NCBI GenBank assembly: GCA_039810485.1
Contig: JBDHXA010000004.1
Location: 11,198-75,197 of the forward strand
Direction of reading: 5' to 3'
Length of the DNA: 64,000 nucleotides
DNA from: Chlorobiota bacterium
GTDB taxonomy: Bacteria > Bacteroidota > Ignavibacteria > Kapaibacteriales > UBA961
The position numbers were made by a program, and so were the translations under genes. The notes beneath the pieces are model-generated. The model was given only the letters and a program-made list of their open reading frames with translations. It had not been told where the DNA came from and did not search any database. Each line of letters begins with the position of its first letter. Position 1 is the first letter of the stretch. Shown in pieces: positions 30 to 14,426 of the stretch.

Positions 30-41
30 TTTACGAAAACA

Positions 42-350: not shown

Positions 351-380
351 TAAAAAGCCGTTCGATCGAACGGCTTTTTA
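351..380. terminator. Perfect 30-bp palindrome, probable bidirectional intrinsic terminator at the end of the cassette array
   Basis: TAAAAAGCCGTTCGATCGAACGGCTTTTTA, with a T-run after the stem on both strands. Confidence 0.7.
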
Positions 381-409: not shown

Positions 410-501
410 CTACGGCTGCACAACCGCCTTAGCTACACTGCGTTTGCCGCCAGATGCCGCTTCGACAAAATACACGCCTGCCGGCCAGCAGACTGTGGAA
501 A
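410..501 (-). repeat. T9SS CTD-tail repeat copy 1 (orphan gene-end remnant)
   Basis: Encodes STVCWPAGVYFVEAASGGKRSVAKAVVQP*. Near-identical DNA at 4931-5021, 9816-9895 and 14111-14182. Confidence 0.9.
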
Positions 502-519
502 AAATATCATCGTCGTCCC

Positions 520-550
520 TCGCGGCGGGCGCAACATACGCCCGCCGCGA
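520..550. other. GC-rich 12-bp hairpin just downstream of the lipoprotein stop
   Basis: TCGCGGCGGGCG-caacata-CGCCCGCCGCGA, with no adjacent U-tract. Confidence 0.6.
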
Positions 551-558
551 TACAAAGG

Positions 559-1563
559 TTATAACCAATGGATAGGAATGGAGGTTACCTCACCGTAAAT
601 TAACTTCGAGTTATACTGATACGTTGGAGGTTCTGGGCTGATAGGATTGAGAATATAGCGATAATAGATGCTCCAGATAGGTACTATGTGGATAAATAGG
701 TTCTTACCACTCTGTTTAACAATACTATTGATGTTGTGAATTGAAAACTCGTTGTAGTTTTTTGCCGCTGTCGAAACAACGTAATATTTCCTTGTGCCTT
801 GATCAGTGCCGTATCCTTTCGGGTTCCCCCAAAAACCAATCTTCTCCCATTCGTTATCGCTAATAATCGGCTCAACTGCTTTAGGTAGATTGTTTTGGTC
901 GAATGTGGCGTGTTGTGTAATACAAGCGTAGTAGCCCACATTCAGAAAATTCTTTGTATAACTAAACGGATGATCAACAGCAAATTCTATTTCCGCACCG
1001 AAGGTATAGACAGTATCTGCGCGGATTTCTTTTATTGTGTTGTGATCCCAAACAGTATCAACCATGATTTTCTCAATGCCCGACGCTTGAGCATTCTTAA
1101 CATAACATCGTGCTGGGGCTTCGTACAAATATATGAAATTATAGATTCCATCTTTCGCATATCCGGTTGTATCAGCTATGATAATGGATAAACGAGACGT
1201 ATCAAGACCGTTATTGTGTTGATTGTCAAGAATTACAGTTTCATAGCCGGTGCGAGTGACTTTAACGGTGAACACCCCTGAATCAACCGCTGTGATTGCG
1301 AAGTTTCCATCCTTGTCGGTCATCGCCGATAAACTCGTACCCACTATTTCTACATTAGTTCCGGACATATCACTCCAAACAATGGGAGGAATTTGTTTTT
1401 GCTTTTGCTCAAAATTGGCAATAAGCCGTACATTTCCAACATAAACACCCGTGCCGTTTGTTTGCGGATTGTTGGGTTTTGTGGGTATTGTTTCTTCTGT
1501 TTTACAAGAGTAAATGAAGAAACAGAGAGATGCAAACGCAAGTGTGGACGCTAAATGTTTCAT
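559..1563 (-). CDS. Lipoprotein with carboxypeptidase-regulatory-like (CarboxypepD_reg) domain; partner of fibre A
   Basis: Lipobox-like FFIYS-C; motif TDKDGNFAITAVDSGVFTVKVTRTGYET; AAGGA SD upstream; paralog of 9904-10875. Confidence 0.8.
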   Translation of the reverse strand: MKHLASTLAFASLCFFIYSCKTEETIPTKPNNPQTNGTGVYVGNVRLIANFEQKQKQIPPIVWSDMSGTNVEIVGTSLSAMTDKDGNFAITAVDSGVFTVKVTRTGYETVILDNQHNNGLDTSRLSIIIADTTGYAKDGIYNFIYLYEAPARCYVKNAQASGIEKIMVDTVWDHNTIKEIRADTVYTFGAEIEFAVDHPFSYTKNFLNVGYYACITQHATFDQNNLPKAVEPIISDNEWEKIGFWGNPKGYGTDQGTRKYYVVSTAAKNYNEFSIHNINSIVKQSGKNLFIHIVPIWSIYYRYILNPISPEPPTYQYNSKLIYGEVTSIPIHWL

Positions 1564-1580
1564 GGTTGTTTTCCTTTGGA

Positions 1581-4500
1581 TTAGTGGATGACAATGAATT
1601 TTTTGGAGGCAACGATTTTTCCGCTTGTAAATATTGAATAGACGTACACTCCTGTTTCAAAATCCTTTGCTGAAATAGAAATTTGTACGGGGCTACCTTT
1701 TATTAGCGAAATTCGTTGGAGTACGATGTTCTGTGATAAGGAAGAAATGAGTAACTCAGGCGAAGAACCAGCTACTTTTTCGGGGATATAATAGGTAATT
1801 GCAGTAACATCTGAGAATGGATTGGGGTTGTTTTGCTCAAGCAAAATATCTTGTTCACCATCGAGCGGGATTTGCTTTTCTGCTTCAAGCCGGGTTATTT
1901 TATCATGAAAGTTTGTTACAATAAGCGATAATGAATCATTTTGAGATTTTAGTTCATTAACGTGCCTATTCAATAAAGAGTCGCCATGTTTTTGCAAGTT
2001 GTCAAGTTCTTTTATAGAATTCACAAGGAGGTAAAACAAGCCGTTAGGATTAAAAGTCATTAAGGATTCCTTTTCGCACACAAATTCTGCTGGTTCGATC
2101 AACCATTTTTTTGCAGGTCGAAAGATTGAGCTGTCCTTTAAGATATAATGCCCATTCTCGTCCTTTTGAGTCGGGTCAGCTACCTTCATTACAATCGTGT
2201 CAACAGCATCAGTTTCATATCTCTTTTCTTCTTTAAGTAGAACTGTGCGCACTATTGTGTCTTCGCTAACCATATACGGTAAAATTTCTTGGATATTCTG
2301 GGCAATTATTCCGATTTCTATATTGTTAGTTGCTCCAATGCCCATTTTCCCATTGTAGCGAAACGTGACTGGCTTAATTCTCCGAATTTTCTCCAAACCA
2401 TCATTAAATGGTTCTACGTCTTTTTTGTAGCGTACATCCGAAGCAACACGCCATGTAGCTCCGCCCTGACTTTTTATTGCGTCGCCATAAACATTGAGGA
2501 GAATATTCGTGTTCATGTAGCCGTAATTCGGGTGAGTGCTATTATTGGGGGTTTCCGGTGTCACTGTACCAGTACCGCCAATGACTACTTTTTCTTGAAC
2601 TGATAGGTCTACATCATTTTCTGCTATTCCTTGTGGCGTATTCCATATAACCACCGTATTAGGATTATTGGAATTATTCACATCCGCCATAGTAACACTT
2701 AGCGCTTCTTGTGGCGAGGCGGTGCCGATGCCAACCCTGTTCTGCACCGCTAGATCGCATTCAACAATAGGGACAGCCTGTACTGCCTGTGTGATCCAAC
2801 TGCTGCCGATAATCGCGCCTTTGTAAGTAGTATTTAGTGCGAAAGTACCCTGTGGAGTGTTTGTTCCTATGCCTATTCGGCCAAAGTTCTCGTCGGCACT
2901 ACTACATCCGACAAACAGCGTGGGTATGGTCTTATCTGGTGTTCCGCCTGTATCATAGCCGATTGCGAGTGAAAGAGGTAAATCGTTGTGTATATTTGTT
3001 CCTATAGCTCCGGCAAAATACCCGCCATCTATAACTTTGACGCCGTAGCCGATACATAACGAACCGTTTGTTTCTGCCCAATTGTATAGCCCGAGCGCAG
3101 TAGCATTATCGTTGCTTGCCGTGTTATATCTGCCAATTACGCCTGAAAAATTTCCGCTTACGGTATTTTGTCCGCCAATAGCGAATGAATGTGAACCAGA
3201 TACGGTATTGCCGTTGCCGATTGCAGCCGAGTTGGAATTTGATGCCTCATTGTGCGCTCCCATTGCTAGTGAATTTTCTGCCAATGCACGGCATTTGAAC
3301 CCATAAGCGTGTGCGGAATATCCGTCGGCTCGATTAGTATAACCGATGGCGACTGCATCTTCGCCTATGGCGCGATTCGCGTGCCCAATAGTTACCGCCC
3401 CATGCGTTGCCGAATGTGAAAGATTGTTCATGCCGATAGCGATATCATGCTCATTACGTGCGCGGGAGTTATAACCAAAAGCAAATGAATTATATCCGAT
3501 GTGCCCGTGATTCCAGCCGGTTGTTTTATCGAAACTCGGCTCGGGGTCGTTTGCGCCGTCTCCGCCGCCACCGGGATAGGTTGCAGCGATTACCCCCGCC
3601 CGAAACGCCGCCTTTTCGGGTATCCACATCAAGCGTGTTCCTGCGCCGCTTGTCGGGGTTGCACCCGTCGTGCCATCGAAAAGAACTGACCCGTCCGTTA
3701 CTTGAAAACGCGCCGTAGGACCCTCGTTATTCACGCCCACATTGCCGTTGCCCAAAAACGACATACGCGAAATGGGTACTTCTAAACCAGCAGGACTTTC
3801 ATACACAGTCGAACTTAGCTGACTCACACCGCTGCGAATATGGAACGAACCCGGATAGCCGTTCCATGCCTCAAGCCACCATGCACGGGCGGGAATTTGC
3901 TCGCAGGTAAGCGGCACCGGCGGATCGCCGAATTGGTATGTGCCTGTGGCGGCATAAAACCGAATAGAAGGATTTGCGGTATAGCCCGTTGTACCCGGCG
4001 GCGCGTTGTTGCTGAACGAGATTTTGGGGTACTCGCAGTTCCACGAGTCGAAGTTAATATCGAACTTTCCATACGGCGAGTGCGTCCCGACGCCTACTTG
4101 ACCGCTTGGCAAAATAGTAAAGCGTTCAATGTCCTGAAGGTCGCCGGGCTGCAAACTTAAGGGATTAGCGGGCGGCGGTGTAGTGGCAAAGCGGATATAG
4201 CCAGTAGTACAACGATTGGCAACAATAATGTCACCCGCCTTGATGTCGGTTTGCAGCACAAGGTCTTTGACGGTGGTTTGGTACGAGCCGAAGAAATCGC
4301 GGCAATAGGAGTACATCGTGCGGTTGTAGCTTGAAGTAATGAGCGAAAGGTGCGCCATAAATTCAGGCGCGAAGGCATCATCGGCAGATGAATGCCAACT
4401 TAGCCGCAGCGTAGGGTCGGAAACATTGCCGATTGAGCCAACGCCATGGATGTTGAGCAATCGCCCTGGATTAGAAGCTGCGCCTATGCCAACATTGCCG

Positions 4501-4694
4501 ACTGCAGGCCATGGGTTTGAATTATTCTGTGCGCAAATCTCTGCAAACGGCGTTGCAAGCATCATAGCAACAACGATCATAACTGCCTTGCAGAAATACT
4601 TGTTACAACGAACAACTTGTCGAGAGAGAGAGAGAGAGAGTTTGCTTCCGGCTTCTCTCCCGTAGGGAGAGGTTCGGGATTGTCTGCGCCGCAT
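1581..4694 (-). CDS. Tail-fibre/adhesin-like protein A with peptidase S74 intramolecular chaperone and T9SS CTD (start uncertain: 4694, 4580, or 4731 after slippage)
   Basis: Signal peptide ending AEICA-Q; GNVGIG/GRIGIGTNTP repeats; YadA-like AIAIG/SFAIG repeats; SDVRYKKD...IGIIAQ...SIKEL S74 motif; coiled coil; LEQNNPNPF...GVYVYSI...KKFIVIH CTD. Confidence 0.85.
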   Translation of the reverse strand: MRRRQSRTSPYGREAGSKLSLSLSRQVVRCNKYFCKAVMIVVAMMLATPFAEICAQNNSNPWPAVGNVGIGAASNPGRLLNIHGVGSIGNVSDPTLRLSWHSSADDAFAPEFMAHLSLITSSYNRTMYSYCRDFFGSYQTTVKDLVLQTDIKAGDIIVANRCTTGYIRFATTPPPANPLSLQPGDLQDIERFTILPSGQVGVGTHSPYGKFDINFDSWNCEYPKISFSNNAPPGTTGYTANPSIRFYAATGTYQFGDPPVPLTCEQIPARAWWLEAWNGYPGSFHIRSGVSQLSSTVYESPAGLEVPISRMSFLGNGNVGVNNEGPTARFQVTDGSVLFDGTTGATPTSGAGTRLMWIPEKAAFRAGVIAATYPGGGGDGANDPEPSFDKTTGWNHGHIGYNSFAFGYNSRARNEHDIAIGMNNLSHSATHGAVTIGHANRAIGEDAVAIGYTNRADGYSAHAYGFKCRALAENSLAMGAHNEASNSNSAAIGNGNTVSGSHSFAIGGQNTVSGNFSGVIGRYNTASNDNATALGLYNWAETNGSLCIGYGVKVIDGGYFAGAIGTNIHNDLPLSLAIGYDTGGTPDKTIPTLFVGCSSADENFGRIGIGTNTPQGTFALNTTYKGAIIGSSWITQAVQAVPIVECDLAVQNRVGIGTASPQEALSVTMADVNNSNNPNTVVIWNTPQGIAENDVDLSVQEKVVIGGTGTVTPETPNNSTHPNYGYMNTNILLNVYGDAIKSQGGATWRVASDVRYKKDVEPFNDGLEKIRRIKPVTFRYNGKMGIGATNNIEIGIIAQNIQEILPYMVSEDTIVRTVLLKEEKRYETDAVDTIVMKVADPTQKDENGHYILKDSSIFRPAKKWLIEPAEFVCEKESLMTFNPNGLFYLLVNSIKELDNLQKHGDSLLNRHVNELKSQNDSLSLIVTNFHDKITRLEAEKQIPLDGEQDILLEQNNPNPFSDVTAITYYIPEKVAGSSPELLISSLSQNIVLQRISLIKGSPVQISISAKDFETGVYVYSIFTSGKIVASKKFIVIH

Positions 4695-5010
4695 GGCTGT
4701 GAATGCGGCAGTTTAGAGTGCGTGTACGCATAGTGTGCCTCCGAAATAGGATGAAAAAAAATAAATGTATAATACGGCTTTTGTTTCGGCACTGTTAAGT
4801 TTTGTTCTGCGGCTAATTTATAGAGAAATTCTAAATTTACCAAATTCTGTCTTGATTTTTTTTCATCATTATAGTAGCACTAATTATTGGAAAACGTATC
4901 ACAGTTCTTACGATTTTTCTGGGCAATATGCTACCGAAGTACAACCGCCTTAGCTACACTGCGTTTGCCGCCAGATGCCGCTTCGACAAAATACACGCCT
5001 GCCGGCCAGC
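3604..5010. repeat. About 1.4 kb direct repeat shared with 8472-9895 (leader plus 5' third of fibre gene)
   Basis: Near-identical DNA at an offset of 4868 in the coding part. The shadow ORFs 3824-4072/8692-8940 and 3840-4160/8708-9028 have identical translations. Confidence 0.95.
4622..4640 (-). repeat. (CT)9C microsatellite in the leader of fibre A
   Basis: G(AG)9 on the + strand, between the SD-led ATG at 4731 and the signal-peptide codons. Confidence 0.95.
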
Positions 5011-6514
5011 AGACTGTGGAAATTTCGCTGCCAGTGCCTGAATAGAGCAATCTGCCGAATACGTCGCGCACAGTAACAACGGCATTGACAGCGCAATGAA
5101 CTGTAAAAGATTCCGAGGTGGGATTTGGAAAGAGAGACAGTTCGGAATAAGTGGCAGGTATTTCGGCTGAAAGGGTTATCGGAATGCCTTTCAGACCGGT
5201 AGGATTAAAGATGACGCCTGCATGAGATCCGTGCTGACCGAAGGCAATCCAGATATTGTCGTTGCAATCTGCCACAAGACCCGTAATGATATCATCAAGC
5301 GGAGCGTTTGAAGTATTGTACTCCGTCCATTGTGTGCCGTCGTACTGAAAAAGCTTGCCTACAGAGCCGACCCAGATATTGTTTTTGCTGTCGACTTCCA
5401 CTGCCGAAACGACGGAGAGAGAAGGAAAATCAACCGAAGTCCACACCGAGCCATCAAATACCGAAGCGTGAACGGGTTTTGAGCCGTGTATGCACCATAC
5501 TTTGCCTTGACGATCGCAGAATATTCCCCAAAACCAGTCATTGCCAAAGGATGATTTCGGAAAAATTTCCGATGTAGCACCATTAAGACGCAAAACGCAT
5601 CTGTAATTATTTGTTGCTATTAGCGTCCAGATAGAGCCGGCGGAGTCAATGCAGATTTTCGGCATTTCATCTAATCTTTCTTCTTCGCTGTTTTTAGCCG
5701 AATACATCTTCTGCCATTGTCCTCCAGAAAAACGATATATTGCGACATTATTGCTGTCGTCTACTGCTTTAAGAGCAGGCAAAAGTCCGTTGCTGTCAAG
5801 AGCAAAATCAATCTGATTACCGTGGAGATTAAGACCAGTTTGAGATGACCAAACAGTTGTCAAATTATTTTTGAAGCGATATATGCTGCCGTTGCTGCTC
5901 GCCCACAATGTTCCTTCCTTGCCGAGTTTGTATCGTGCAAAACCGTGATCATCATAAAAGCCGGGCGCATATAATGTTTGCGAGTTCCATTCGCCTTTTT
6001 CAAAGGTGTTGAGCCGGAGTTTACCCCCATTAAGCTGCTCAATACCAATAACGGCGCCACTATTTCCGCGAATTATTCTATTGCCCCATCGGTCTGCGTC
6101 GGAGTTAACAACCTTCCACTTCCAAACAGGATTGTTAGAGATATGGAGAATGCATTGAGCCGTGCTTATGAGTTGGCCGTTTGTGCCGGTAACGATAATA
6201 ATGTATGTGCCGGTATCGGTCGTGGATTGAGGATATTTTGTAAATGTTATTGGAGTATATGGTTGGTTAATTGCGCCGAAGTCAGCATTCAGCGATGTGC
6301 TTCCGTTGGGGTACGTCGTTTGTTTTGTAAGAAACACCGTTGCATCAAAACCGCCGGAGGTTTGTACCGATACGGTAAATGTTGCGCTGTCTCCGACTGC
6401 AATTGTTTCTTCATTCGGAGTAATTGAGAGAGTAAATGATTGCGCAGAACTGCCTGAAATTGAGGCAAATGCAACCGAGATGGCGGCAGCGAGGAATACA
6501 AGTGTTGTTTTCAT
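4931..6514 (-). CDS. Secreted beta-propeller protein (two-component-regulator-propeller-like repeats) with N-terminal Ig-like domain and T9SS CTD; partner of fibre B
   Basis: Signal peptide SSA-Q; repeats such as IDSAGSIW, VDSKNNIWVG, FDGSVW and YDGTQW; C-terminal LFPNPT...PAGVYFVEAASGGKRSVAKAVVLR; GGAG SD. Confidence 0.8.
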   Translation of the reverse strand: MKTTLVFLAAAISVAFASISGSSAQSFTLSITPNEETIAVGDSATFTVSVQTSGGFDATVFLTKQTTYPNGSTSLNADFGAINQPYTPITFTKYPQSTTDTGTYIIIVTGTNGQLISTAQCILHISNNPVWKWKVVNSDADRWGNRIIRGNSGAVIGIEQLNGGKLRLNTFEKGEWNSQTLYAPGFYDDHGFARYKLGKEGTLWASSNGSIYRFKNNLTTVWSSQTGLNLHGNQIDFALDSNGLLPALKAVDDSNNVAIYRFSGGQWQKMYSAKNSEEERLDEMPKICIDSAGSIWTLIATNNYRCVLRLNGATSEIFPKSSFGNDWFWGIFCDRQGKVWCIHGSKPVHASVFDGSVWTSVDFPSLSVVSAVEVDSKNNIWVGSVGKLFQYDGTQWTEYNTSNAPLDDIITGLVADCNDNIWIAFGQHGSHAGVIFNPTGLKGIPITLSAEIPATYSELSLFPNPTSESFTVHCAVNAVVTVRDVFGRLLYSGTGSEISTVCWPAGVYFVEAASGGKRSVAKAVVLR

Positions 6515-6532
6515 GATTGTGTTCTCCCTGTG

Positions 6533-9448
6533 TTATTTGATGACAATGAATTTTTTGGAGGCGAAAACTTTGCTGTTGATGCTAATCGAATAGACGAATA
6601 CGCCTGTATAGAGATTAGCTGACGAAATAGTTATTTGAGTGGGAATACCCTTTGTCAGAATATAGTGTTGCAGCACAGGAGATTGAGTGGTAGGGGCAAT
6701 GAGCAATTCTGCATCGCCCTGCACACTGTCGGGAATGTAGTAAGTAATAGTTGTTGATTCAGCGAAAGGATTCGGATTATTTTGCTCCAAAATTATATCG
6801 GCGGCATCGCTGACGGCAATTTGATTCTGTGCTTCAAGTCGGGCAAGCCGCTCTTCATGGTTTTTCAGGATTACGCGCAGAGAGTCATTACTTGATGACA
6901 ATGCCTCATGCTTTGCGGTATGAGTATCATATTTTTCTTGTAATGTGCTGATTTCAATTTGTTGTAGCGAGTCGGTTGCTGCAAGTGTAGCGACTTTCGT
7001 TGCCAGTAAGGCAACTTTTTCTTGCAATGCGAAGGTCTCTGCAATCCGCGTCGAATCCAACTCCTTGATGGAGTTAATGATGGTGTATGTTAAGGCACTA
7101 GGATTATAGATGAGTATCGGTGATGACTCTGTGGCAAATTCAGCAGGTTCGATCACCCACTTTTTTATGGGCCGAAAAGTTACTGTGTCTCTGTATATGT
7201 AATGCCCATGCTCGTCCTTTACAGTAGTATCTGCAATTTGCCTCACGGTCTTCTCGACAGTATCAATTTGGTAGCGCCGTTCCATTTTGGTACGAACAAC
7301 ATGAAGTAGTGTATCCGCCCGCACTGTATATGGGAAAATTTCTTGCATATCTTGTGCAATAACCCCAATGCTCTCCTTATCATCATTGAATCCGAGTCTT
7401 TCATTGTATCTGAAACGAACGGGGTTTATTCGTTTGAGTAAATCCAAGCCATCCCGATATGGATGAATATCTTTTTTGTAGCGTGCATCAGAAGGAATAT
7501 CCCATGTTGCTGTTCCTGAGTTGCCGAGTTTCACTGCATCTCCCCAAACCTGAAGTAAACTAGTTTGTCCGGATCGTGCGCCATTGATATAACTTGGCGC
7601 GAGCGGAGTACCTGTTCCGCCAATAACAACCGACTGTTCGATAATTACTCCTATCGGATTTCCCGTACCTCCAACAGCAGGAACCGCATTACTCCCTCCC
7701 CAACCAAAGCAAACTGTGCCATCGACGCCAAGGCTACAAGCGGGGGATGCTGTGCCAATTCCAACCTTTTTTTCTACTATGAGATTAGTATTAGCATCAC
7801 CGGGTGTTTGCGAGCCACTCCAACCAACTGCAATTGAGCCGTTTACTCCGAGAGTAGAAAGCGGATTAGTTGTACCTATTCCTACATTGCCAAATGAGCC
7901 ACTACTTCCATCTCCGCCGCTGATAAATAGAGTGGGTGTATCGCTGTTGAATCCGACCATTAGTGAATTCGAGATGCTATTGGTCAATCGTTTGCTAAAA
8001 GGATCAATAGAGGTTACCCCTATTCCAGTGCCTATAATCATTGCGCCGGGCTTAGTAGCATTTAAGAAAGCACCAATACCAACACTATGGTACTTATCAA
8101 AAAATCTCGTTCTTGTGGTATCCCCAGTGCGCACATATTCACCTATTGAATAGGACATAGAATTAAACACTTCTGATTGGTGTCCGAATGCTGCACTAGA
8201 CAACCCGCGAACATGGTTTCTCCAGCCGGTTACAAAAGCATCATTACCTGAAACAGTGTCTTCATGCCCGAATGCAAATGAGCAATGGCCAGCCCCTTGG
8301 TCATATCCATCACCGTTAATATATGAATAATGTCCAAAAGCTCCTGATGCCCCACCACGTGCGTAGGTGTTAAGCCCTATTGCAACAGAGTAAAGTCCAA
8401 TATTGGAATTATCCCAATAACCGGAAGCATCTGGAAGTGATATAGTATCGTCGTTCAATTTCCCTGCCCTGAACGCCGCCCTTTCCGGTATCCACATCAA
8501 GCGTGTTCCTGCGCCGCTTGTCGGGGTTGCGCCAACTGTGCCATCGAAAAGAACTGACCCGTCCGTTACTTGAAAACGCGCCGTAGGACTCTCGTTATTC
8601 ACGCCCACATTGCCGTTTCCCAAAAACGACATACGCGAAATGGGTACTTCTAAACCAGCAGGACTTTCATACACAGTCGAACTTAGCTGACTCACACCGC
8701 TGCGAATATGGAACGAACCCGGATAGCCGTTCCATGCCTCAAGCCACCATGCACGGGCGGGAATTTGCTCGCAGGTAAGCGGCACCGGCGGATCGCCGAA
8801 TTGGTATGTGCCTGTGGCGGCATAAAACCGAATAGAAGGATTTGCGGTATAGCCCGTTGTACCCGGCGGCGCGTTGTTGCTGAACGAGATTTTGGGGTAC
8901 TCGCAGTTCCACGAGTCGAAGTTAATATCGAACTTTCCATACGGCGAGTGCGTCCCGACGCCTACTTGACCGCTTGGCAAAATAGTAAAGCGTTCAATGT
9001 CCTGAAGGTCGCCGGGCTGCAAACTTAAGGGATTAGCGGGCGGCGGTGTAGTGGCAAAGCGGATATAGCCAGTAGTACAACGATTGGCAACAATAATGTC
9101 ACCCGCCTTGATGTCGGTTTGCAGCACAAGGTCTTTGACGGTGGTTTGGTACGAGCCGAAGAAATCGCGGCAATAGGAGTACATCGTGCGGTTGTAGCTT
9201 GAAGTAATGAGCGAAAGGTGCGCCATAAATTCAGGCGCGAAGGCATCATCGGCAGATGAATGCCAACTTAGCCGCAGCGTAGGGTCGGAAACATTGCCGA
9301 TTGAGCCAACGCCATGGATGTTGAGCAATCGCCCTGGATTAGAAGCTGCGCCTATGCCAACATTGCCGACTACAGGCCATGGGTTTGAATTATTCTGTGC
9401 ACAAATCTCTGCAAACGGCGTTGCAAACATCATAGCAACAACAATCAT
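6533..9448 (-). CDS. Tail-fibre/adhesin-like protein B with S74 chaperone and T9SS CTD
   Basis: First ~330 aa nearly identical to fibre A; SDARYKKD S74 motif; long coiled coil; LEQNNPNPF...KKFIVIK CTD. Confidence 0.85.
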   Translation of the reverse strand: MIVVAMMFATPFAEICAQNNSNPWPVVGNVGIGAASNPGRLLNIHGVGSIGNVSDPTLRLSWHSSADDAFAPEFMAHLSLITSSYNRTMYSYCRDFFGSYQTTVKDLVLQTDIKAGDIIVANRCTTGYIRFATTPPPANPLSLQPGDLQDIERFTILPSGQVGVGTHSPYGKFDINFDSWNCEYPKISFSNNAPPGTTGYTANPSIRFYAATGTYQFGDPPVPLTCEQIPARAWWLEAWNGYPGSFHIRSGVSQLSSTVYESPAGLEVPISRMSFLGNGNVGVNNESPTARFQVTDGSVLFDGTVGATPTSGAGTRLMWIPERAAFRAGKLNDDTISLPDASGYWDNSNIGLYSVAIGLNTYARGGASGAFGHYSYINGDGYDQGAGHCSFAFGHEDTVSGNDAFVTGWRNHVRGLSSAAFGHQSEVFNSMSYSIGEYVRTGDTTRTRFFDKYHSVGIGAFLNATKPGAMIIGTGIGVTSIDPFSKRLTNSISNSLMVGFNSDTPTLFISGGDGSSGSFGNVGIGTTNPLSTLGVNGSIAVGWSGSQTPGDANTNLIVEKKVGIGTASPACSLGVDGTVCFGWGGSNAVPAVGGTGNPIGVIIEQSVVIGGTGTPLAPSYINGARSGQTSLLQVWGDAVKLGNSGTATWDIPSDARYKKDIHPYRDGLDLLKRINPVRFRYNERLGFNDDKESIGVIAQDMQEIFPYTVRADTLLHVVRTKMERRYQIDTVEKTVRQIADTTVKDEHGHYIYRDTVTFRPIKKWVIEPAEFATESSPILIYNPSALTYTIINSIKELDSTRIAETFALQEKVALLATKVATLAATDSLQQIEISTLQEKYDTHTAKHEALSSSNDSLRVILKNHEERLARLEAQNQIAVSDAADIILEQNNPNPFAESTTITYYIPDSVQGDAELLIAPTTQSPVLQHYILTKGIPTQITISSANLYTGVFVYSISINSKVFASKKFIVIK

Positions 9449-9612
9449 AACTGCCTTGCAGAAATACTTGTTACAACGAATAACTTGTCGAGAGAGAGAG
9501 AGAGAGAGTGTGTGTGTGAGTGTGCTTCCGGCTTCTCTCCCGTAGGGAGAGGTTCGGGATTGTCTGCGCCGCGCGGCTGTGAACGCGGCAGCTTAGAGTG
9601 TGTGTTACGCAT
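9445..9612 (-). CDS. SD-led leader ORF (55 aa) spanning the microsatellite; its stop overlaps the fibre B ATG (ATGA)
   Basis: GGAGG-cacacg-ATG; MRNTHSKLPRSQPRGADNPEPLPTGEKPEAHSHTHSLSLSLDKLFVVTSISARQL*; identical copy at 13740-13907. Confidence 0.55.
   Translation of the reverse strand: MRNTHSKLPRSQPRGADNPEPLPTGEKPEAHSHTHSLSLSLDKLFVVTSISARQL
9490..9524 (-). repeat. Compound (CA)n/(CT)9 microsatellite in the leader of fibre B
   Basis: + strand G(AG)9 (TG)5 AG TGTG; 12 nt longer than the equivalent region of copy A. Confidence 0.95.
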
Positions 9613-9815
9613 CGTGTGCCTCCGAAATAGGATACAAAAAAACATAAATGTATAATACGGCTTTTGTTTTCGGCGCTGTTAAGTTTTGTTCTGTGGCTAA
9701 TTTATAGAGAAATTCTAAATTTACCAAATTCTGTCTTGATTTTTTTCTCATCATTATAGTAACACTAATTATTGGAAAACGTATCACAGTTCTTACGATT
9801 TTTCTGGGCAATACG

Positions 9816-9895
9816 CTACCGAAACACAACCGCCTTAGCTACACTGCGTTTGCCGCCAGATGCCGCTTCGACAAAATACACGCCTGCCGGCCAGC
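9816..9895 (-). repeat. T9SS CTD-tail repeat copy 3 (orphan remnant, 8 nt after the lipoprotein stop)
   Basis: Encodes WPAGVYFVEAASGGKRSVAKAVVFR* and is out of frame with the lipoprotein. Confidence 0.9.
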
Positions 9896-9903
9896 CCACC
9901 TTG

Positions 9904-10875
9904 TTATCGCCATTGAATTTGATATGATTGGGGCGCACCGATTATCCAGTCGATAATAATGCTTTCAGCTGGCCCTTTTGCGGCATCGCCACGCACTCTA
10001 CGTAAACCTCGCCAAATTGGAGTAAAGTGTAAATATAATGCAACTCCTTGCCGAAGAGACAAATTCCTTGCTTTGGCATACTCTTTTAGTGATAAGCCAA
10101 TCTTGAAGTATCGTTTTGTTTTATCCCCATTGTCAGGATATGAAGGATATTTATCTTCAAGACAGAAAAAGCCATTCGAATCATATTGCCATGAGCGTGA
10201 AAATAAAACCGTATTTGGAATTTTATTCGCGGATAACGTAGATTGTTCGTTGATGCAAGCCATGTATCCTACAGGTACTTCTTCACGACGATTGGTAAAG
10301 TATGACTCTATAGATGTGGTTATGTTGGCTGTAAAATCGTATAGAGTATCTCGTTTGCTCTCTGTTTTTACGCCGTGGTCATCTACCGAATCCACACGAA
10401 TAATCTCTTTAACAGTAGCTAGAGCACTAACTACCTGCACGGTTGGAGGTAATTCGGCAAGGCGCGGTATAAGAGATGTTGGAATACTTAGCAATGTATC
10501 GGAATATATAGGTCCCATTTGAAGAGTATCTTCTCCTTTAACAACTACCCTATACGCTGTCATAGTATCAAAGCCGGGCGCAGTAAATTGAATGGCGTAT
10601 TTGCCTGAGTCCAGATAGTTTAATTGCCATTTACCCATACTGTCGGTTGTGGTGGAAGCACCTGTTCCGAGAACTGTTACGAGTATTCCGCTATTATCGG
10701 AGTTCTCATATTTTTTGTCGAAAGTATAAAGTAATGCAGAACCTTTAAGAACACTTCTATCGGAAGTTTTCTTTATAGAATCAATTGGACTTGGTTTTGT
10801 TGGGATTGTGTCCTGTTGCATGCAACCAACAAAAATGACAATACTACTGACTGCAAGAAAAGCAAAGTTTTTCAT
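9904..10875 (-). CDS. Lipoprotein with carboxypeptidase-regulatory-like domain; partner of fibre C
   Basis: Lipobox IFVG-C; TTDSMGKWQLNYLDSGKYAIQFTAPGFDT; shares TIPTKP, RxDTxY.F, VGYxACI and LHxxPIW motifs with 559-1563; AGGAG SD. Confidence 0.8.
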   Translation of the reverse strand: MKNFAFLAVSSIVIFVGCMQQDTIPTKPSPIDSIKKTSDRSVLKGSALLYTFDKKYENSDNSGILVTVLGTGASTTTDSMGKWQLNYLDSGKYAIQFTAPGFDTMTAYRVVVKGEDTLQMGPIYSDTLLSIPTSLIPRLAELPPTVQVVSALATVKEIIRVDSVDDHGVKTESKRDTLYDFTANITTSIESYFTNRREEVPVGYMACINEQSTLSANKIPNTVLFSRSWQYDSNGFFCLEDKYPSYPDNGDKTKRYFKIGLSLKEYAKARNLSLRQGVALYLHFTPIWRGLRRVRGDAAKGPAESIIIDWIIGAPQSYQIQWR

Positions 10876-10890
10876 GATGTTCTCCTAAAA

Positions 10891-13743
10891 TTAACGTATG
10901 AGGATCATTTTTTTCGAAGCAAGGACTTTGCCGTTGGCAAGTACCGAGTAGACATATATGCCTATTGTCATATCTTGTGCAGAGATAACAACCTGTGAAG
11001 GAATGCCTTTGATGCAGTCGAACCGCTTGATAACCGATGATTGGTTGGAAGTAGCAACAACAATCTCGGCATTTCCTTGTACCTTTTCAGGTATAAAGTA
11101 TGTGATAGTCGAATTGCCGGCAAAGGGATTGGGAGTATTCTGCTCTAACAGAACATCTATTGCCTCATCAAGCGGCATTTGTTGCTGTGATTCGAGTCGA
11201 GCGACTCGCTGTTCTAATTTTTTCGCAACAAAATGCAGTGAATCTATAGTTTGCTGAAGGATATCTATAGCTGCCGATGCCTCTTTTTTTTGTGCAGTTA
11301 TAGCAGCATCAATTTCTTTAATGGCGTTGACCAAAACATACTTCAGGGCATTTGAGTTGTATGTGAGTATCGCGGCTGATTCAAGTCTGCTTTCGGCAGG
11401 CTCGGTCATCATTCTCTTAACAGGTCGCAGAACTATCGAATCTTTTGTGCCAAAATGACCTATCCCTTCACGCTTTGTGGCATCCTTTACTTGCACAACT
11501 ACTGTATCCACAGCATCAACTTCGTATCGCTTTTCATGCTTGGTAATTATTGTTCGAGAGAGGGTGTCTTCATTGATAGTGTAGGGAAGAATTCTCTGCA
11601 TTTCTTGTGCAAGAATCCCGACTTGTTTATCAAAACTTTCAAATCCAAATTCTCCGTTATATTTGAACCAAATCGGATTTATCATTCGGATTTTATCGAG
11701 GCCGTCTCGAAAAGGCGCAATATCTTTTTTATAACGCTCATCCGAAGCAATGACCCAGGTGTCGGTGCCGTCTGACTTAATAGCTCGACCATTGACATGT
11801 AGTAATAGGTCTTGTGGTCGCGTCGTATAAGTTTCGCTCGGATCTAGTAGAGAATTTCGCCCTATTACAACTTTCTCCTCCACCATGAGGTCGATGCTTG
11901 GATCGGCAATTGGACCAGTGGGATTATTCCAAATAATTACCCTGTTATCATCAGTAATTTGATCAGTAGAACTCCTACTCGTAACACTCAGCGCTTCATG
12001 AGGTGAATACGTTCCAATACCGACATTTTTTTCGGCAACGAGGGAGATTTTAGACGCATTAGGATGCGGATCATCTAATGCTTGTGAGCCGGACCATCCT
12101 ATGACTACATTACCGTTAACGCCAAGTGTATTTTCTGGATATAGTGTGCCTATTCCAACACGGGGGACCGGACGCGATGCTTGCCCGTGGTAGCTTGCAT
12201 TTGCATAAGAAATATATGCACCCCAAGCATCGTTCACACCCATCAAAATTGAGTTTTCGTTGTTATTTTCCAATGGACCGATACCCATGCACATAGAGTT
12301 TTCTGCATTTGCGGTACAGCCATATCCGAATGTGTAAGAGGTTGCTTTCTTTGAACTGTTAAATGCGCCTATTGCCATGGCATTTTTTGCAAAGGCATTG
12401 CATTCGCGCCCAAAAATTTGGGCGCACTGCCCGTATGCTCTGTTGCTATAACCCATCGCGAAGGCATCTTCCCCTGATGCGCGATTCGCGTGGCCGATAG
12501 CAACTGCGCCGTGTTTGTCGCCTGAATTTGATAAATTATTGAAGCCGAGAGCAATGTCGTAAGAACCGCTCGCTCTGGAGCTATACCCAAAAGCAAAGGA
12601 ATTAAAACCAATATAAGCATCATCCCAACTTTTTGTTTTATCAAAATTAGGTTCCGGGTCGTGGTTGCCGTCGCTTGCTGTTCCCACAATCCCCGCCCGA
12701 AACGCTGCCTTTTCCGGTATCCACATTAGGCGTGTTCCAGCACCTATTTCATCAAACTGCCAATCTGTGTTGTCAGGATCGTTATTCAGATCTTTCCATC
12801 TTTTCGGCGTAGAACCGGAAGCTCCCTCGAACAGCAATGCTCCATCAGTTACATGCAGCTTTGCAGACGGCCATTCCTGATTTATCCCCACATCGCCATT
12901 GCTCAGGATTTTCATGCGCGTTACCGGTTTTTCCGTGCCGATGCGGTTTGTATAGTCGCTGCTGTTTTCCGTAGAAACGCCCGCGCGGAAGCGTAGCGAG
13001 CTTACACCGGGAATATCATGATAGGCGCCGTTTTCCAGCCACCATGCCCAAGAACTGACATTAGGACAATCTAAATCACTGCCGCTGGCTCGGTATAAGC
13101 GAAGGGAGGGATCGGACGTCGAACTTGTCTTGCTAACATTAACGGCTGATGATAATGTTATTTTCGGCATATTGCAATTCCACCCCCGAAGATTGATGTC
13201 GAACATCCCAGCCGGTTGGGATGTATTTATTCCTATTTTACCTTCAGGCGTCATGGTAAAACGTTCTATGTTGGCTCCCGACGCCGGTTCGGTTGTGGCA
13301 AATCGCAAAAAGCCAGTTGAGCTGCGAGTGGTCAGAATCAAATCACCATAGCCGCCCGCTGCTATTGGCGGTTCTCCGGCTTGCAGAATCAAATCGCCAT
13401 TTGTTGCATTTTGCACGGGCAATGTATATCCTCCGCCTATAATAGGACGTATCAGAGAATAATCGTAACATCCGCCGTACATGATTGTGTTATCAGGCGT
13501 AAGCAACGAGAGATGGCCGGCATAGAGAAAACCTTCTGCATTTCCGCTGGCGCCATAGCTCAATCGAATTGTGGGGTCGCCGCCATTGGGATATATAATT
13601 GACGGGGCGGCATGCACGTTGAGCTTCTTCTGAGGATTGTTTGTTCCAATGCCAATGTATGCAGCAACCGGCCATGGAAATGTATTATTCTGTGCACAAA
13701 TCTCTGCAAACGGCGTTGCAAACATCATAGCAACAACAATCAT
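10891..13743 (-). CDS. Tail-fibre/adhesin-like protein C with S74 chaperone and T9SS CTD
   Basis: Same signal peptide as B but divergent N-terminal domain; YadA-like repeats; SDERYKKD S74 motif; LEQNTPNPF...KKMILIR CTD. Confidence 0.85.
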   Translation of the reverse strand: MIVVAMMFATPFAEICAQNNTFPWPVAAYIGIGTNNPQKKLNVHAAPSIIYPNGGDPTIRLSYGASGNAEGFLYAGHLSLLTPDNTIMYGGCYDYSLIRPIIGGGYTLPVQNATNGDLILQAGEPPIAAGGYGDLILTTRSSTGFLRFATTEPASGANIERFTMTPEGKIGINTSQPAGMFDINLRGWNCNMPKITLSSAVNVSKTSSTSDPSLRLYRASGSDLDCPNVSSWAWWLENGAYHDIPGVSSLRFRAGVSTENSSDYTNRIGTEKPVTRMKILSNGDVGINQEWPSAKLHVTDGALLFEGASGSTPKRWKDLNNDPDNTDWQFDEIGAGTRLMWIPEKAAFRAGIVGTASDGNHDPEPNFDKTKSWDDAYIGFNSFAFGYSSRASGSYDIALGFNNLSNSGDKHGAVAIGHANRASGEDAFAMGYSNRAYGQCAQIFGRECNAFAKNAMAIGAFNSSKKATSYTFGYGCTANAENSMCMGIGPLENNNENSILMGVNDAWGAYISYANASYHGQASRPVPRVGIGTLYPENTLGVNGNVVIGWSGSQALDDPHPNASKISLVAEKNVGIGTYSPHEALSVTSRSSTDQITDDNRVIIWNNPTGPIADPSIDLMVEEKVVIGRNSLLDPSETYTTRPQDLLLHVNGRAIKSDGTDTWVIASDERYKKDIAPFRDGLDKIRMINPIWFKYNGEFGFESFDKQVGILAQEMQRILPYTINEDTLSRTIITKHEKRYEVDAVDTVVVQVKDATKREGIGHFGTKDSIVLRPVKRMMTEPAESRLESAAILTYNSNALKYVLVNAIKEIDAAITAQKKEASAAIDILQQTIDSLHFVAKKLEQRVARLESQQQMPLDEAIDVLLEQNTPNPFAGNSTITYFIPEKVQGNAEIVVATSNQSSVIKRFDCIKGIPSQVVISAQDMTIGIYVYSVLANGKVLASKKMILIR

Positions 13744-13907
13744 AACTGCCTTGCAGAAATACTTGTTACAACGAATAACTTGTCGAGAGAGAGAGAGAGA
13801 GAGTGTGTGTGTGAGTGTGCTTCCGGCTTCTCTCCCGTAGGGAGAGGTTCGGGATTGTCTGCGCCGCGCGGCTGTGAACGCGGCAGCTTAGAGTGTGTGT
13901 TACGCAT
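13740..13907 (-). CDS. SD-led leader ORF (55 aa) overlapping the fibre C start
   Basis: Identical to 9445-9612, with the same ATGA overlap. Confidence 0.55.
   Translation of the reverse strand: MRNTHSKLPRSQPRGADNPEPLPTGEKPEAHSHTHSLSLSLDKLFVVTSISARQL
13785..13819 (-). repeat. Compound (CA)n/(CT)9 microsatellite in the leader of fibre C
   Basis: + strand G(AG)9 (TG)5 AG TGTG, identical to copy B. Confidence 0.95.
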
Positions 13908-14048
13908 CGTGTGCCTCCGAAATAGGATACAAAAAAACATAAATGTATAATACGGCTTTTGTTTTCGGTGCTGTTAAGTTTTATTCTGCGCTTAATTTAT
14001 AGAGAAATTCTAAATTTACCAAATTCTGTCTTGATTTTTTTCTCATCA

Positions 14049-14426
14049 TTATAGTAACACTAAATTATTGGAAAACGTATCATAGTTCTTACGATTTTTC
14101 TGGGCAATATGCTGCCGAAACACAACCGACTTAGCCACACTGCGTTTGCCGCCAGATGCCGCTTCGACAAAATACACGCCTGCGGACCGACCGCTGGTAG
14201 AAATTTTGCCACCCGCACCTGCGTAGAGCAGCTTGCCGAAAATGTCGCGAACGGCAATGGTTGCACCTGCGGGCGCGGAAACATCAAAACGCTCGCTGAC
14301 AGGGTTGGGCTTTATTAGTAAATCTGAATTTAGATTTTGATTTTCTTCTGGCGGATTCATCTGATATTCGGACTTATGATTTGCGGTAAATTCTAAAATA
14401 ATGAATAAACGAGCGCAGTCAATCAA
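14049..14426 (-). pseudogene. Orphan T9SS CTD (truncated gene remnant); CTD-tail copy 4
   Basis: IKPNPVSERFDVSAPAGATIAVRDIFGKLLYAG...SAGVYFVEAASGGKRSVAKSVVFR is homologous to the end of 4931-6514. No signal peptide, and the TAG of the other copies is CAG here, giving read-through. Confidence 0.7.

Follow-up and report, generated by a model that had tools for sequence, protein, structure and literature searches.

A tandem array of three S74 fibre genes with repeat-tract leaders, a candidate contingency locus in an uncultured Kapaibacteriales bacterium

Results

Three head-to-tail units of leader, fibre gene and partner gene

The locus was analysed within a window of 64 kb, by which we mean the whole stretch of DNA examined; its host is a Kapaibacteriales bacterium of activated sludge, uncultured and assigned to the Bacteroidota in the wide sense. 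An ORF list and repeat analysis place three head-to-tail units at 351-14426, each composed of a leader of 350-370 nt, a fibre gene of 950-1000 aa and then a partner gene, all encoded on the minus strand and listed in order of transcription in Table 1. The upstream end of the array is marked by a relic ORF without a signal peptide, whose stop codon is lost; the terminator at the other end is the strongest terminator-like site in 1-15000. The fib1 frame remains open as far upstream as a second ATG, at 4694, from which the product would measure 1037 aa. The array is flanked by housekeeping genes, no phage or recombinase genes were found near it in the 64 kb window, and genome-wide searches found no further copies of the leader or fibre sequences in the rest of the genome, confining the leader to the array. 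An initial annotation had described a tandem array of three cassettes bounded by CTD tails and closed by a fourth tail and a terminator, which the ORFs, a 92-nt repeat family and self-BLAST bear out; its leader of about 400 bp proved to be shorter.

Table 1. Features of the array, in order of transcription
Feature	Position	Strand	Description and evidence
Relic ORF	14049..14426	-	125 aa, par2-type T9SS tail only; Por_Secre_tail 27.3 bits (Pfam), translation
Leader 3	13744..14111	-	(CT)9 tract 13785-13802; leader alignment, SSR scan, frame analysis
fib3	10891..13743	-	Fibre gene, 950 aa; S74 domain at residues 667-720, about 11584-11745
par3	9904..10875	-	Class A partner, 323 aa lipoprotein; PF13620 E 5e-8
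Tail remnant directly 3' of par3	9816..9907	-	Repeat family D4; 97% identity over 80 nt to par2 tail
Leader 2	9449..9815	-	(CT)9 tract 9490-9507; leader alignment, SSR scan, frame analysis
fib2	6533..9448	-	Fibre gene, 971 aa; S74 domain at residues 653-709, about 7322-7492
par2	4931..6514	-	Class B partner, 527 aa; 3' end is third copy of 92-nt tail family
Leader 1	4581..4930	-	Putative promoter, conserved hairpin, (CA)n(CT)9 tract (4622-4639), upstream ATGs; leader alignment, SSR scan, frame analysis
fib1	1581..4580	-	Fibre gene, 999 aa from conserved ATG; S74 domain about 2268-2441
par1	559..1563	-	Class A partner, 334 aa lipoprotein; PF13620 E 6e-8
Tail remnant 3' of par1	410..501	-	Non-coding, last ~30 codons of par2-type T9SS tail; family D4; 96% over 92 nt vs par2 tail
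Palindromic intrinsic terminator	351..380		13-pair stem, 5 GC pairs, then T run; closes array

Fibre proteins with a phage-type chaperone and bacterial export features

All three fibres contain a Peptidase_S74 domain (PF13884) over the Pfam cut-off (fib1, E 1e-14; fib2, E 5e-15; fib3, E 6e-12), and in the alignment its catalytic site (Ser714, Asp715, Lys719) is invariant in 12 of 12 family members, upholding the earlier call of an S74 chaperone, which is of phage type with its catalytic residues present. The YadA head, also named in the initial annotation, was matched by Pfam in fib1 (E 7e-12) and fib3 (E 7e-10) but not in fib2, and no YadA membrane-anchor domain was found in the fibres by Pfam or NCBIfam. 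The fibre beta-helix has VGIGTxxPxxxL-type loops and is related to that of the Bdellovibrio MAT fibres; the proteins have N-terminal hydrophobic export sequences, and C-terminal to the S74 domain lie a coiled coil and then a seven-stranded beta-sandwich resembling a type A T9SS sorting domain. Against the PDB, a fibre profile matched the heads of trimeric autotransporters (CbpF at 7e-13; also BpaC, UspA1 and YadA, with E from 7e-13 to 7e-8), MYRF (7dc3, 9e-7), Bdellovibrio Bd2133 (8ond, 4e-6), 8oml (2e-5) and the phage tail fibre 8jov.

Viral contigs share the S74 domain and portions of the fibre, with 22 partial relatives found among them, and in phages the genes 3' of fibre genes often encode assembly proteins, which is the position that the partner genes occupy here. 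Both observations would suit a phage or tailocin remnant, with the fibres as receptor-binding proteins and the partners as fibre-assembly chaperones. However, the 22 viral relatives are all incomplete and leave the C-terminal tail uncovered, the window holds no phage genes near the array, the fibres combine N-terminal export sequences with a C-terminal sorting-like domain, and the partners bear a lipobox or a T9SS tail; we consider such an origin highly improbable.

The genome encodes a T9SS, with SprA and PorU over their cut-offs and a PorV-like gene adjoining PorU, and contains 111 Por_Secre_tail matches, those over the cut-off within the array being par2 and the relic ORF. The fibre tails all fall below the curated cut-offs of Pfam and NCBIfam: PF18962 matches seven of ten family tails over positions 3-75 of 75 (E 2e-4 to 4e-3), including fib1 at 18.7-19.3 bits against a cut-off of 27, and gives no match on the tails of fib2, fib3 and one relative. 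An AF2 model of the fibre tail has seven strands (pLDDT 87), for which Foldseek returned generic Ig-like folds only, none at E <= 0.001, and hhalign gave a probability of 18% between the fibre tail and par2-type tails. The fibres had been annotated as T9SS-secreted; the secretion system is indeed present, but their own tails are sub-threshold or unmatched, and T9SS sorting of the fibres is weakly indicated.

Two conserved partner classes

The partner genes, initially described as variable, fall into two conserved classes: class A, a lipoprotein (par1 and par3), and class B, a beta-propeller protein with a clear T9SS tail (par2). The class A lipobox Cys is invariant in all eight aligned sequences (par1, par3 and six homologues). 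Par1 joins a CarboxypepD_reg-like beta-sandwich to a beta-rich C-terminal domain; its AF2 model has a pLDDT of 66.8, and structure searches (Foldseek, Atlas) led to DUF3823 / transthyretin-like lipoproteins. Par2 comprises a signal peptide, an Ig-like domain, a Reg_prop beta-propeller and a type A T9SS tail (Por_Secre_tail, 29.1 bits, over the cut-off), and its profile matched the periplasmic propeller of HTCS (2e-26), PorZ (5m11, 5e-11) and T9SS CTDs (4e-7) in the PDB, with a PorZ equivalog score of 18.6 bits against a cut-off of 260. No PorP/SprF-like match was found for the partners in Pfam or NCBIfam. From their sequences, both kinds look surface-anchored.

A class A or B partner lies 3' of 11 of the 12 readable close-family fibres. 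Ten full-length class A homologues occur in 41 related genomes, where six follow a fibre gene, one follows a fibre remnant, two have no upstream fibre and one could not be placed either way; the linkage of partners to fibres is not universal.

Mosaic units with two histories

The units are bounded by a 92-nt secretion-tail family (D4) of four copies with 83-100% identity, and the relic ORF is 82% identical to the par2 tail over 119 nt. Self-BLAST equates 3594-5010 with 8462-9895 (96.6% over 1434 bp) and 9351-9887 with 13646-14183 (95.7%). The leaders are near-identical, as first described (93% mean column identity in the alignment of all three), with leaders 3 and 2 reaching 98-100% in their 5' UTR part. 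Divergence of the fibre bodies likewise stands, but the first ~330 codons of fib1 and fib2 are 99-100% identical, and between-unit identity shifts sharply at about 3650-3594. Judged by these identities, the array consists of paralogous cassettes bounded by repeats, and shows clear mosaics produced by recombination.

In a tree, N-domains cluster by genome and bodies cluster by cassette type across species; the fib3 body is sister to a sister-species fibre with a class A partner (support 100/99), and fibre body and partner are orthologous between the window genome and the sister species. Comparison of the non-coding tail remnants with the functional tail gives 95-97% identity within the genome of either species, and between the two species the remnants are barely alignable. 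This pattern indicates that gene conversion within a genome keeps the leader, fibre N-domain and non-coding tail remnants homogeneous, and that the unit has two histories: a 3' part, comprising the fibre body, the S74 and tail region and the partner, that is old and inherited as a block, and a 5' part, made up of the tail remnant, promoter region, tract and signal peptide, with the N-domain added in fib1 and fib2, that is near-identical through conversion. The cassette shuffling proposed in the initial annotation thus survives as gene conversion of the 5' module and tail remnants, but not as exchange of whole cassettes, body and partner being stable and orthologous; its expansion and contraction found no counterpart in copy-number change, depth being even (13-16) in the unique parts.

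Three real units might also have been wrongly ordered or joined at these repeats of 0.5-1.4 kb. Public-run contigs end at the repeats without bridging them, the N-domain sequence shared at 3619-4503 has collapsed into one piece of about double depth (26 vs 13-16), and in the sister genome the equivalent locus is split over three contigs at exactly these repeats. On the other hand, the repeats are not identical (96.6% and 95.7%), so that an assembler can resolve them, the depth of the unique parts is near that of the flanks (16-19), a head-to-tail array is consistent with the tail remnants found at each junction, and a contig from another genus carries two fibre-partner units in tandem. We judge an artefact improbable; the unit order rests on one assembly and is unconfirmed.

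Repeat tracts at the leader position

Every leader contains a (CT)9 tract, all three of the same length of 9 units, and these are the only dinucleotide tracts of at least 7 units found by an SSR scan of the 2,924,049 bases of the genome. This simple-sequence repeat, absent from the initial annotation, is the best clue to the purpose of the leader, whose RNA is not unusual in stability (z -0.68) and has no match in Rfam. Tracts occupy the leader position in nine of ten genes of the closest clade, with unrelated sequences at the shared place (CT, AT and two different heptamers). Across 77 related loci (728 kb), five of eight tracts fall within -400 to +150 of a fibre start, 76 such starts being in view; these five are all from the closest clade, and none was found at the other 71 fibre starts examined; repeat tracts at this position are a hallmark of the closest clade of fibre genes. 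Other tracts in the genome are found upstream of a gene for type I restriction specificity, which is a classic target of phase variation.

In relatives, the tract sits between start codon and signal peptide, which may or may not share a frame. An upstream ATG is in frame with the (CT)19 of the sister species; a single MAG carries three paralogues, unlinked but with a common leader, two of which read ATG, heptamer tract and signal peptide in frame while the third is put out of frame by 14 extra nt; and in a different genus no start codon stands between the tract and the signal peptide, the sole ATG being out of frame by a shift that one unit would correct. In the window's own units the switching mechanism is ambiguous. 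From an ATG at -114, the fib1 reading frame crosses the tract without a stop; fib2 and fib3 have an out-of-frame ATG at -164, a shift that loss of one CT unit would correct, and a conserved ATG directly before the hydrophobic core that could start translation at any tract length. A 55-codon upstream frame in leader 2 crosses the tract and ends at a TGA overlapping the fibre ATG, and the window species and the sister species do not share a conserved in-frame peptide ahead of the tract.

Could this be a plain tandem gene family without switching, made of duplicated fibre-partner pairs under constitutive or ordinary regulation, with leaders similar through recent duplication or conversion and tracts that are neutral low-complexity DNA of the 5' UTR? 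The equal length of the three tracts agrees with this, as do two near-identical sister-species assemblies (99.5%), both (CT)19 with no indel, and the conserved ATG before the signal-peptide core in the window's genus, which could make the tract irrelevant to translation. Public-run contigs aligned to the locus show no insertion or deletion, contigs being unable to reveal minority lengths, and none of the RNA runs contained the locus. Such a family is nevertheless hard to square with unrelated tracts at the same place in nine of ten closest-clade genes and at none of the other 71 fibre starts, with two other lineages in which the tract separates the only ATG from the signal peptide and paralogues differ by whole units that change the frame, and with window tracts that are the genome's only long dinucleotide tracts; we regard it as unlikely, though a serious candidate.

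Discussion

The mosaic adhesive trimeric (MAT) fibres of Bdellovibrio bacteriovorus, encoded by 21 genes across the genome, include an S74 subgroup (e.g. Bd3182) and have an N-terminal domain of ~130 aa (PMC10769870). Like them, the window fibres are of bacterial rather than phage origin and predicted to be secreted and trimeric, with a signal peptide, a beta-helix with V-G-x-x-x-x-P-x-x-x-L capping loops, variable tips, a C-terminal S74 domain with SDxxxK, and a multi-gene repertoire (PMC10769870). The parts of that account drawn on here describe MAT fibres without a T9SS tail, repeat tract, shared leader or partner gene; unlike them, the window fibres have a coiled coil and a sorting-like domain after S74, and their genes form a tandem array with gene conversion instead of being dispersed (PMC10769870).

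With phage S74 spikes and fibres (K1F endosialidase, T5 pb1) and with MYRF, the window fibres share PF13884 over the cut-off and the Ser/Lys dyad; unlike the phage proteins, they come from a chromosomal locus with no phage context, carry export signals at both protein ends and have only partial viral matches. In MYRF, a membrane anchor lies downstream of the cleavage site, so that cleavage frees the N-terminal part, and the tail of the window fibres also lies downstream of that site. YadA_head repeats in fib1 and fib3, and head matches by profile, recall the trimeric autotransporter adhesins (YadA, UspA1, BpaC, CbpF), from which the window fibres differ in that no YadA membrane-anchor domain was found and the predicted secretion route is another one.

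The opa genes of Neisseria are dispersed surface adhesin genes for small beta-barrels, in which a coding tract in the signal-peptide region switches each copy and recombination between copies creates mosaics. The window likewise holds a predicted surface adhesin family with a tract near the signal peptide and mosaics from recombination between copies; in contrast, its proteins are unrelated, its genes are tandem, its switching is a prediction and its tract may sit in an upstream frame. SprB is a T9SS cargo with a cognate neighbouring SprF / PorP-like partner, resembled here by a large surface protein of T9SS type whose neighbouring partner gene is conserved, their binding being putative, and the class B partner has the propeller-plus-tail layout of PorZ (5m11, E 5e-11). 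Unlike SprF/PorP and PorZ themselves, the window partners are not PorP/SprF-like, and the class B protein lies far below the PorZ equivalog cut-off. In the invertible tail-fibre cassettes of phages Mu and P1, a constant 5' part of S is combined with a variable 3' part of S plus U; the window shares the constant 5' module and the alternative cassettes of distal fibre part and downstream partner gene, but has no invertase or inverted repeats, its cassettes are all complete genes on one strand, and its diversity comes from conversion and, probably, repeat slippage.

The explanation that we favour, with a probability of about 0.58, is a contingency locus on the chromosome of this Kapaibacteriales bacterium, encoding a small repertoire of three trimeric fibre adhesins that are exported, vary in phase and undergo gene conversion. 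In such a locus, slipped-strand changes in the tract would bring an upstream start codon into or out of frame with the signal peptide or, alternatively, alter the coupling between the upstream frame and the fibre ATG, and each fibre would be switched on and off independently. Export would proceed by Sec first and then by T9SS; after folding, S74 cleavage would separate the fibre from its chaperone and sorting tail, and the co-inherited partner may hold or complete the fibre at the surface after cleavage. The cell, on this sequence evidence, can probably switch individual fibres on and off and, if this is true, a population would display different fibre combinations.

Organization of the fibre array

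The array holds three fibre genes (fib1, fib2 and fib3), each with a partner gene directly downstream (par1, par2 and par3) and a leader upstream, the numbering running opposite to the order of transcription. A head-to-tail arrangement of this kind had been proposed in the initial annotation and is confirmed here, with corrections to the leader length, to the extent of sequence shared by fib1 and fib2, to the variability of the partners and to the standing of the fibre tails.

Features of the fibre array, listed in order of transcription (positions in the window)
Feature	Position	Strand	Description
Relic ORF	14426-14049	minus	125 aa; Por_Secre_tail only; stop codon lost
Leader 3, fib3, par3		minus	fib3, 950 aa; par3, 323 aa
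Tail remnant	between par3 and leader 2	minus	92-nt remnant of a Por_Secre_tail-type tail
Leader 2, fib2, par2		minus	fib2, 971 aa; par2, 527 aa, with an intact tail at its end
Leader 1, fib1, par1		minus	fib1, 999 aa counted from its conserved ATG, 1037 aa with the frame that is open upstream; par1, 334 aa
GC hairpin and fourth tail remnant	after par1 (remnant 501-410)	minus	
Terminator	351-380		array end; the sole strong terminator of the region

Self-BLAST pairs 3594-5010 with 8462-9895 (96.6% over 1434 bp) and 9351-9887 with 13646-14183 (95.7% identity), and an alignment of the three leaders has a mean column identity of 93%. When the leader was searched against the rest of the genome (2.92 Mb, 140 contigs) it was absent outside the array, and the fibres had no copy elsewhere either. 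The order of the units rests on one assembly, since public-run contigs end at the repeats and at the tracts. In these contigs, depth is 13-16 over the unique parts, 16-19 over the flanks and roughly double, at 26, over the shared N-domain piece, as expected for single-copy units.

The source of the window appears to be an activated-sludge metagenome. In two runs of one study there are contigs that match the leader's 3' part as far as 4774, beyond which their sequence is unrelated, and the match of another public-run contig is limited to 5665-5865 within par2; the community may thus contain a related strain, or another locus, that has the same part of the leader. The genes neighbouring the array are of a housekeeping kind (bshC, amidohydrolase, glycosyltransferase, guanylate kinase and fumarase), with no phage gene or recombinase in the array neighbourhood. 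GC content is 45.4% in the array and 40.5% in the genome. Just beyond the terminator and a dispersed repeat lies a tRNA-Pro(GGG) gene (window 1-29; 11152-11226 of its own contig, C4, minus strand). The dispersed repeat itself, about 110 nt long (window 104-214), has 76 BLAST matches in the genome, of which approximately 40 are at least 75 nt long with 71-78% identity; most of these longer copies sit right at contig termini, which makes the element the probable cause of many breaks in the assembly.

Fibres with a predicted self-chaperone and a probable T9SS-like tail

All three fibres match the self-chaperone domain Peptidase_S74 (PF13884) well above the cut-off of 22 bits (fib1 54.9 bits, E = 1e-14; fib2 56.1 bits, 5e-15; fib3 46.2 bits, 6e-12), which bears out the earlier assignment. 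The S-D-x-x-x-K residues S714, D715 and K719 (numbering of the 999-aa form of fib1) are conserved without exception in an alignment of 12 family members. YadA_head was found by Pfam in fib1 and fib3; the Pfam and NCBIfam scans detected no YadA-type membrane anchor in any of the three fibres, the YadA-type matches being confined to head repeats. Against PDB sequences, the fibre family profile matched the heads of trimeric autotransporters (CbpF at 7e-13, also BpaC, UspA1 and YadA), MYRF (9e-7), phage fibres, and the Bdellovibrio MAT fibres Bd2133 (8ond, 4e-6) and 8oml (2e-5). Capping-loop motifs of the VGIGTxxPxxxL type are repeated along the fibres. The N-terminus reads M-IVVAMMFATPFAEICA-QNN, with a small-residue site after a hydrophobic core, and this start has no charged n-region, unless translation begins upstream.

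The S74 domain is followed by a coiled coil and then by a stretch of around 80 residues beginning LEQNxPNPF. The initial annotation had taken T9SS tails to be a regular part of the cassettes. This holds for par2 and the relic ORF, both of which exceed the Pfam cut-off for Por_Secre_tail (29.1 and 27.3 bits), but at the same thresholds it does not hold for the fibres: in scans with PF18962 and TIGR04183 the fib1 tail reaches 18-19 bits against cut-offs of 23 and 27 (the latter for PF18962), and the tails of fib2 and fib3 have no Por_Secre_tail match. We consider the fibre tail to be probably T9SS-like. In favour of this, 7 of 10 family fibre tails match the whole Por_Secre_tail profile (E 2e-4 to 4e-3, all below cut-off), and the AF2 model of the tail has seven strands (pLDDT 87.2). 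Against it, Foldseek with this model returned generic Ig/FnIII-like folds only, none at E ≤ 0.001, and hhalign between fibre tails and par2-type tails gave a probability of 18%.

The host genome encodes a T9SS. SprA (675 bits, or 874 with an in-frame neighbour) and PorU (799 bits) both exceed their cut-offs, and a PorV-like gene adjoining PorU reaches 159.8 + 83.5 bits, a little short of 250. Six-frame searches of the same genome gave 111 Por_Secre_tail matches (E ≤ 0.01), the majority above the cut-off, a very large T9SS cargo set for a genome of 2.9 Mb. One clear T9SS tail (43.4 bits) belongs to a Sortilin/BNR-repeat protein at window 24000-25259. In the sister species, a related genome, a BNR-type tail protein is encoded directly upstream of a fibre leader; its orthology to the protein at 24000-25259 was considered and rejected on comparison.

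Two partner classes are linked to the fibres

The partner genes had been described as variable. Partners do differ between the units, but they fall into two conserved classes. Class A comprises par1 and par3, homologous lipoproteins whose lipobox cysteine is shared by all 8 aligned sequences. Their CarboxypepD_reg-like sandwich is accompanied by a C-terminal domain that is rich in beta structure (AF2 pLDDT 66.8). Foldseek with the class A model gave beta-sandwich matches only (TM about 0.2), and Foldseek and Atlas weakly indicate DUF3823-type Bacteroides lipoproteins. Class B is represented by par2, which has a clear type A tail in addition to an Ig-like domain and a Reg_prop beta-propeller; a par2 profile matches an HTCS sensor propeller (2e-26), PorZ (5e-11) and solved T9SS tails (4e-7). 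Membership of the PorP/SprF family was not found for any partner in Pfam or NCBIfam, where par1 and par3 match CarboxypepD_reg only and par2 matches Reg_prop and Por_Secre_tail. Both conserved types look surface-anchored.

The linkage extends to relatives. Where the gene following a close-family fibre is readable, it is of class A in seven cases and of class B in three, with one weak class B match and one gene of neither class. Conversely counted, 41 genomes contain 10 full-length class A homologues, six of which follow a fibre gene and one a fibre remnant; two have no fibre upstream and the upstream gene of the last is uncertain. A complex prediction with three copies of the fib1 tip and par1 scored 0.01 and so lent binding no support, a result that counts neither for nor against it. 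At one locus in a relative of the same order (L136, contig G037:C13, ~1528-2877), a class A partner follows only the last ~110 fibre codons, which carry an internal stop; this locus is a decayed cassette.

Distribution among relatives

Full-length relatives are few and, where the source is named, come from Ignavibacteria, Kapaibacterium or 'Bacteroidetes' MAGs. Nineteen of 41 related genomes have a match at E ≤ 1e-10. A pattern scan using one genome per species returned 245 stretches, 219 of them relatives, the close ones in Kapaibacterium-type MAGs. Viral contigs gave 22 partial matches, none of them full length and none covering the C-terminal tail.

In the sister species (G001) the locus is split into three contigs, with breaks exactly at the repeats. 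Two of these begin at fibre residue ~209; the fibre is followed by a class A partner in one of them and by a par2 orthologue with 51% identity in the other. The third terminates in leader and N-domain. The array contigs of G001 have no flanking gene in common with the window contig. One other genus has two fibre + class A units in tandem on a single contig, and a fibre + class B pair elsewhere.

Different histories of the leader-proximal block and the fibre body

The initial annotation had contrasted near-identical leaders with divergent fibre bodies. Sliding-window comparison upholds the first part, with leader identity of 87-100% across the three units, but the N-domains of fib1 and fib2 are themselves 99-100% identical, each being about 45% identical to that of fib3. 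A sharp break in identity occurs near 3650-3594. Downstream of it fib1 is nearer to fib3 (64-70% over 3612-3330), and the remaining sequence is 25-60% identical between units.

Phylogenetic trees divide along the same lines. The N-domain tree is ordered by genome: fib1 groups with fib2 (100/99), and the three fibres of another genus group together (97/95), whatever their partner class. The body tree is ordered by cassette type across species, joining fib3 to the sister-species fibre with a class A partner (100/99) and fib2 to the sister-species fibre with the par2 orthologue (100/99). In each of the two species, the non-coding tail remnants share 95-97% identity with the functional tail in the same genome (over 92 nt and 108 nt), and between the species the tails are alignable over at most 24 nt. 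Taken together, the identity break, the discordance between the N-domain and body trees, and the within-genome identity of the tail remnants are the signature of gene conversion, which keeps the inter-cassette block uniform within a genome, with the block of body, tail and partner being old.

Repeat tracts at fibre starts

Each leader carries a (CA)n(CT)9 tract about 45 nt upstream of the conserved fibre ATG, the CA part being 12 nt shorter in leader 1. These are the only three dinucleotide tracts of at least 7 units in the whole genome. The leader also contains TTTG-N20-TAAATTAG, which we take to be a putative promoter by the Bacteroidota consensus. Ahead of fib2 and fib3, a 55-codon frame begins with an ATG at -164, runs through the tract and ends in a TGA overlapping the fibre ATG, so that the loss of one CT unit would join this frame to the fibre. 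The fib1 frame, by contrast, can be read across the tract without a stop, starting at an ATG at -114. Compared with the other two leaders, leader 1 has a 2-nt change at window 4694, which makes an ATG in frame through the tract, as well as deletions of 1 nt and 12 nt, and this leaves fib1 as the one fibre gene that is open ahead of the tract.

Repeat tracts recur throughout the family, with copies in and out of frame. In the sister species, the corresponding place is occupied by (CT)19, in frame with an upstream ATG. In one MAG, three unlinked paralogues have a common leader consisting of an ATG, a heptamer tract and a signal peptide; two of the three are in frame, and the third, longer by 14 nt (two heptamers), is out of frame. 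Another genus has seven units of a different heptamer between the sole ATG and a signal peptide without a start codon of its own; here the ATG is out of frame, an offset that a single unit would put right. One further relative has (AT)7. Altogether, a tract is present in 9 of the 10 closest-clade genes with a readable 5' end and in none of the 71 other fibre starts examined, and five of the eight tracts in 728 kb are located at fibre starts; the genes in question are kin, so neither the 9 of 10 nor the five of eight consists of independent counts.

From these sequence patterns we infer repeat-mediated phase variation of the fibres. An alternative is that the conserved ATG, which in the window's genus stands directly before the hydrophobic core, could render the tract irrelevant. 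The peptide encoded ahead of the tract is in a frame that is not conserved between the window and the sister species. Variation in tract length was not seen among the three window tracts, which are equal, nor between two sister-species assemblies that are 99.5% identical and both have (CT)19. Public-run contigs over the array contain no indels, although contigs mask minority variants, and a metagenome pattern scan for hairpin plus tract returned one contig, from the sister species, with equal tract length. The predicted fold of the leader RNA is not unusually stable (z -0.68 against shuffles), and no Rfam family reached threshold in 1-15000.

Elsewhere in the same genome there are longer-unit tracts: on contig C37, heptamers of 8 and 6 units (17524-17579 and 19385-19426) precede a type I restriction specificity gene and fall within the restriction-modification locus to which it belongs; on contig C3, heptamers of 8 + 6 units (61001-61099) precede a YceI gene, and an octamer of 9 units (43013-43084) separates convergent genes. 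These may be further phase-variable loci.

Discussion

In the mechanism that we favour, repeat slippage in each leader would switch the corresponding fibre gene on or off. The fibre would be exported by Sec, fold as a trimer on its S74 chaperone and be taken through the T9SS by its C-terminal tail; S74 self-cleavage would sever it from chaperone and tail, and the surface-anchored partner would retain or complete it. A more far-reaching reading, at a probability of roughly one in four, is an Opa-like contingency system in an environmental bacterium of the Bacteroidota lineage. Here each slippage-switched, self-cleaving fibre of phage type would leave by the T9SS still attached to its sorting tail, and once cleaved by S74 it would be captured at the cell surface by the lipid- or LPS-anchored partner, co-inherited with the fibre body. 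Gene conversion would hold the switch module uniform as the binding cassettes diverge.

The opa genes of Neisseria, which have a coding repeat in the signal-peptide region, are the closest analogy known to us for the proposed switching. A 2025 study reportedly describes phase variation dependent on 5'-UTR repeats in Haemophilus.

For the fibres themselves, the nearest described system is that of the Bdellovibrio MAT fibres (PMC10769870). Common to both are a signal peptide (putative here), a capping-loop beta-helix, variable tips and S74, whereas the window genes are set apart by a sorting-like tail after S74, a tandem array, a common repeat-tract leader and partner genes. MAT fibres have a conserved beta-rich N-terminal domain of ~130 aa after the signal peptide, and the surface element to which this domain binds is stated as unknown (PMC10769870). 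Literature searches returned no paper on S74 combined with T9SS, nor on repeat-tract switching of such genes. We place the locus with known kinds, namely MAT-like fibres, T9SS cargo and contingency loci.

Genomes of Bacteroidota commonly encode fibres in which a phage self-cleaving chaperone is joined by a T9SS tail, and we found no study of them. To these the locus adds a likely on/off switch, its leader tracts recurring in the closest clade with copies in and out of frame; concerted evolution, in which the switch module is homogenised per genome and the binding cassettes are old; and two conserved partner types, surface-anchored in appearance. If the Opa-like reading is true, it would account for the position of the S74 cleavage site upstream of the T9SS signal, and the partner would be a candidate surface anchor for MAT-type fibres. 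If the three points on switch, evolution and partners are confirmed, the adhesive surface of uncultured sludge and freshwater bacteria would change stochastically, in the manner of host-adapted pathogens, and this would offer a handle on the order of S74 cleavage and T9SS sorting.
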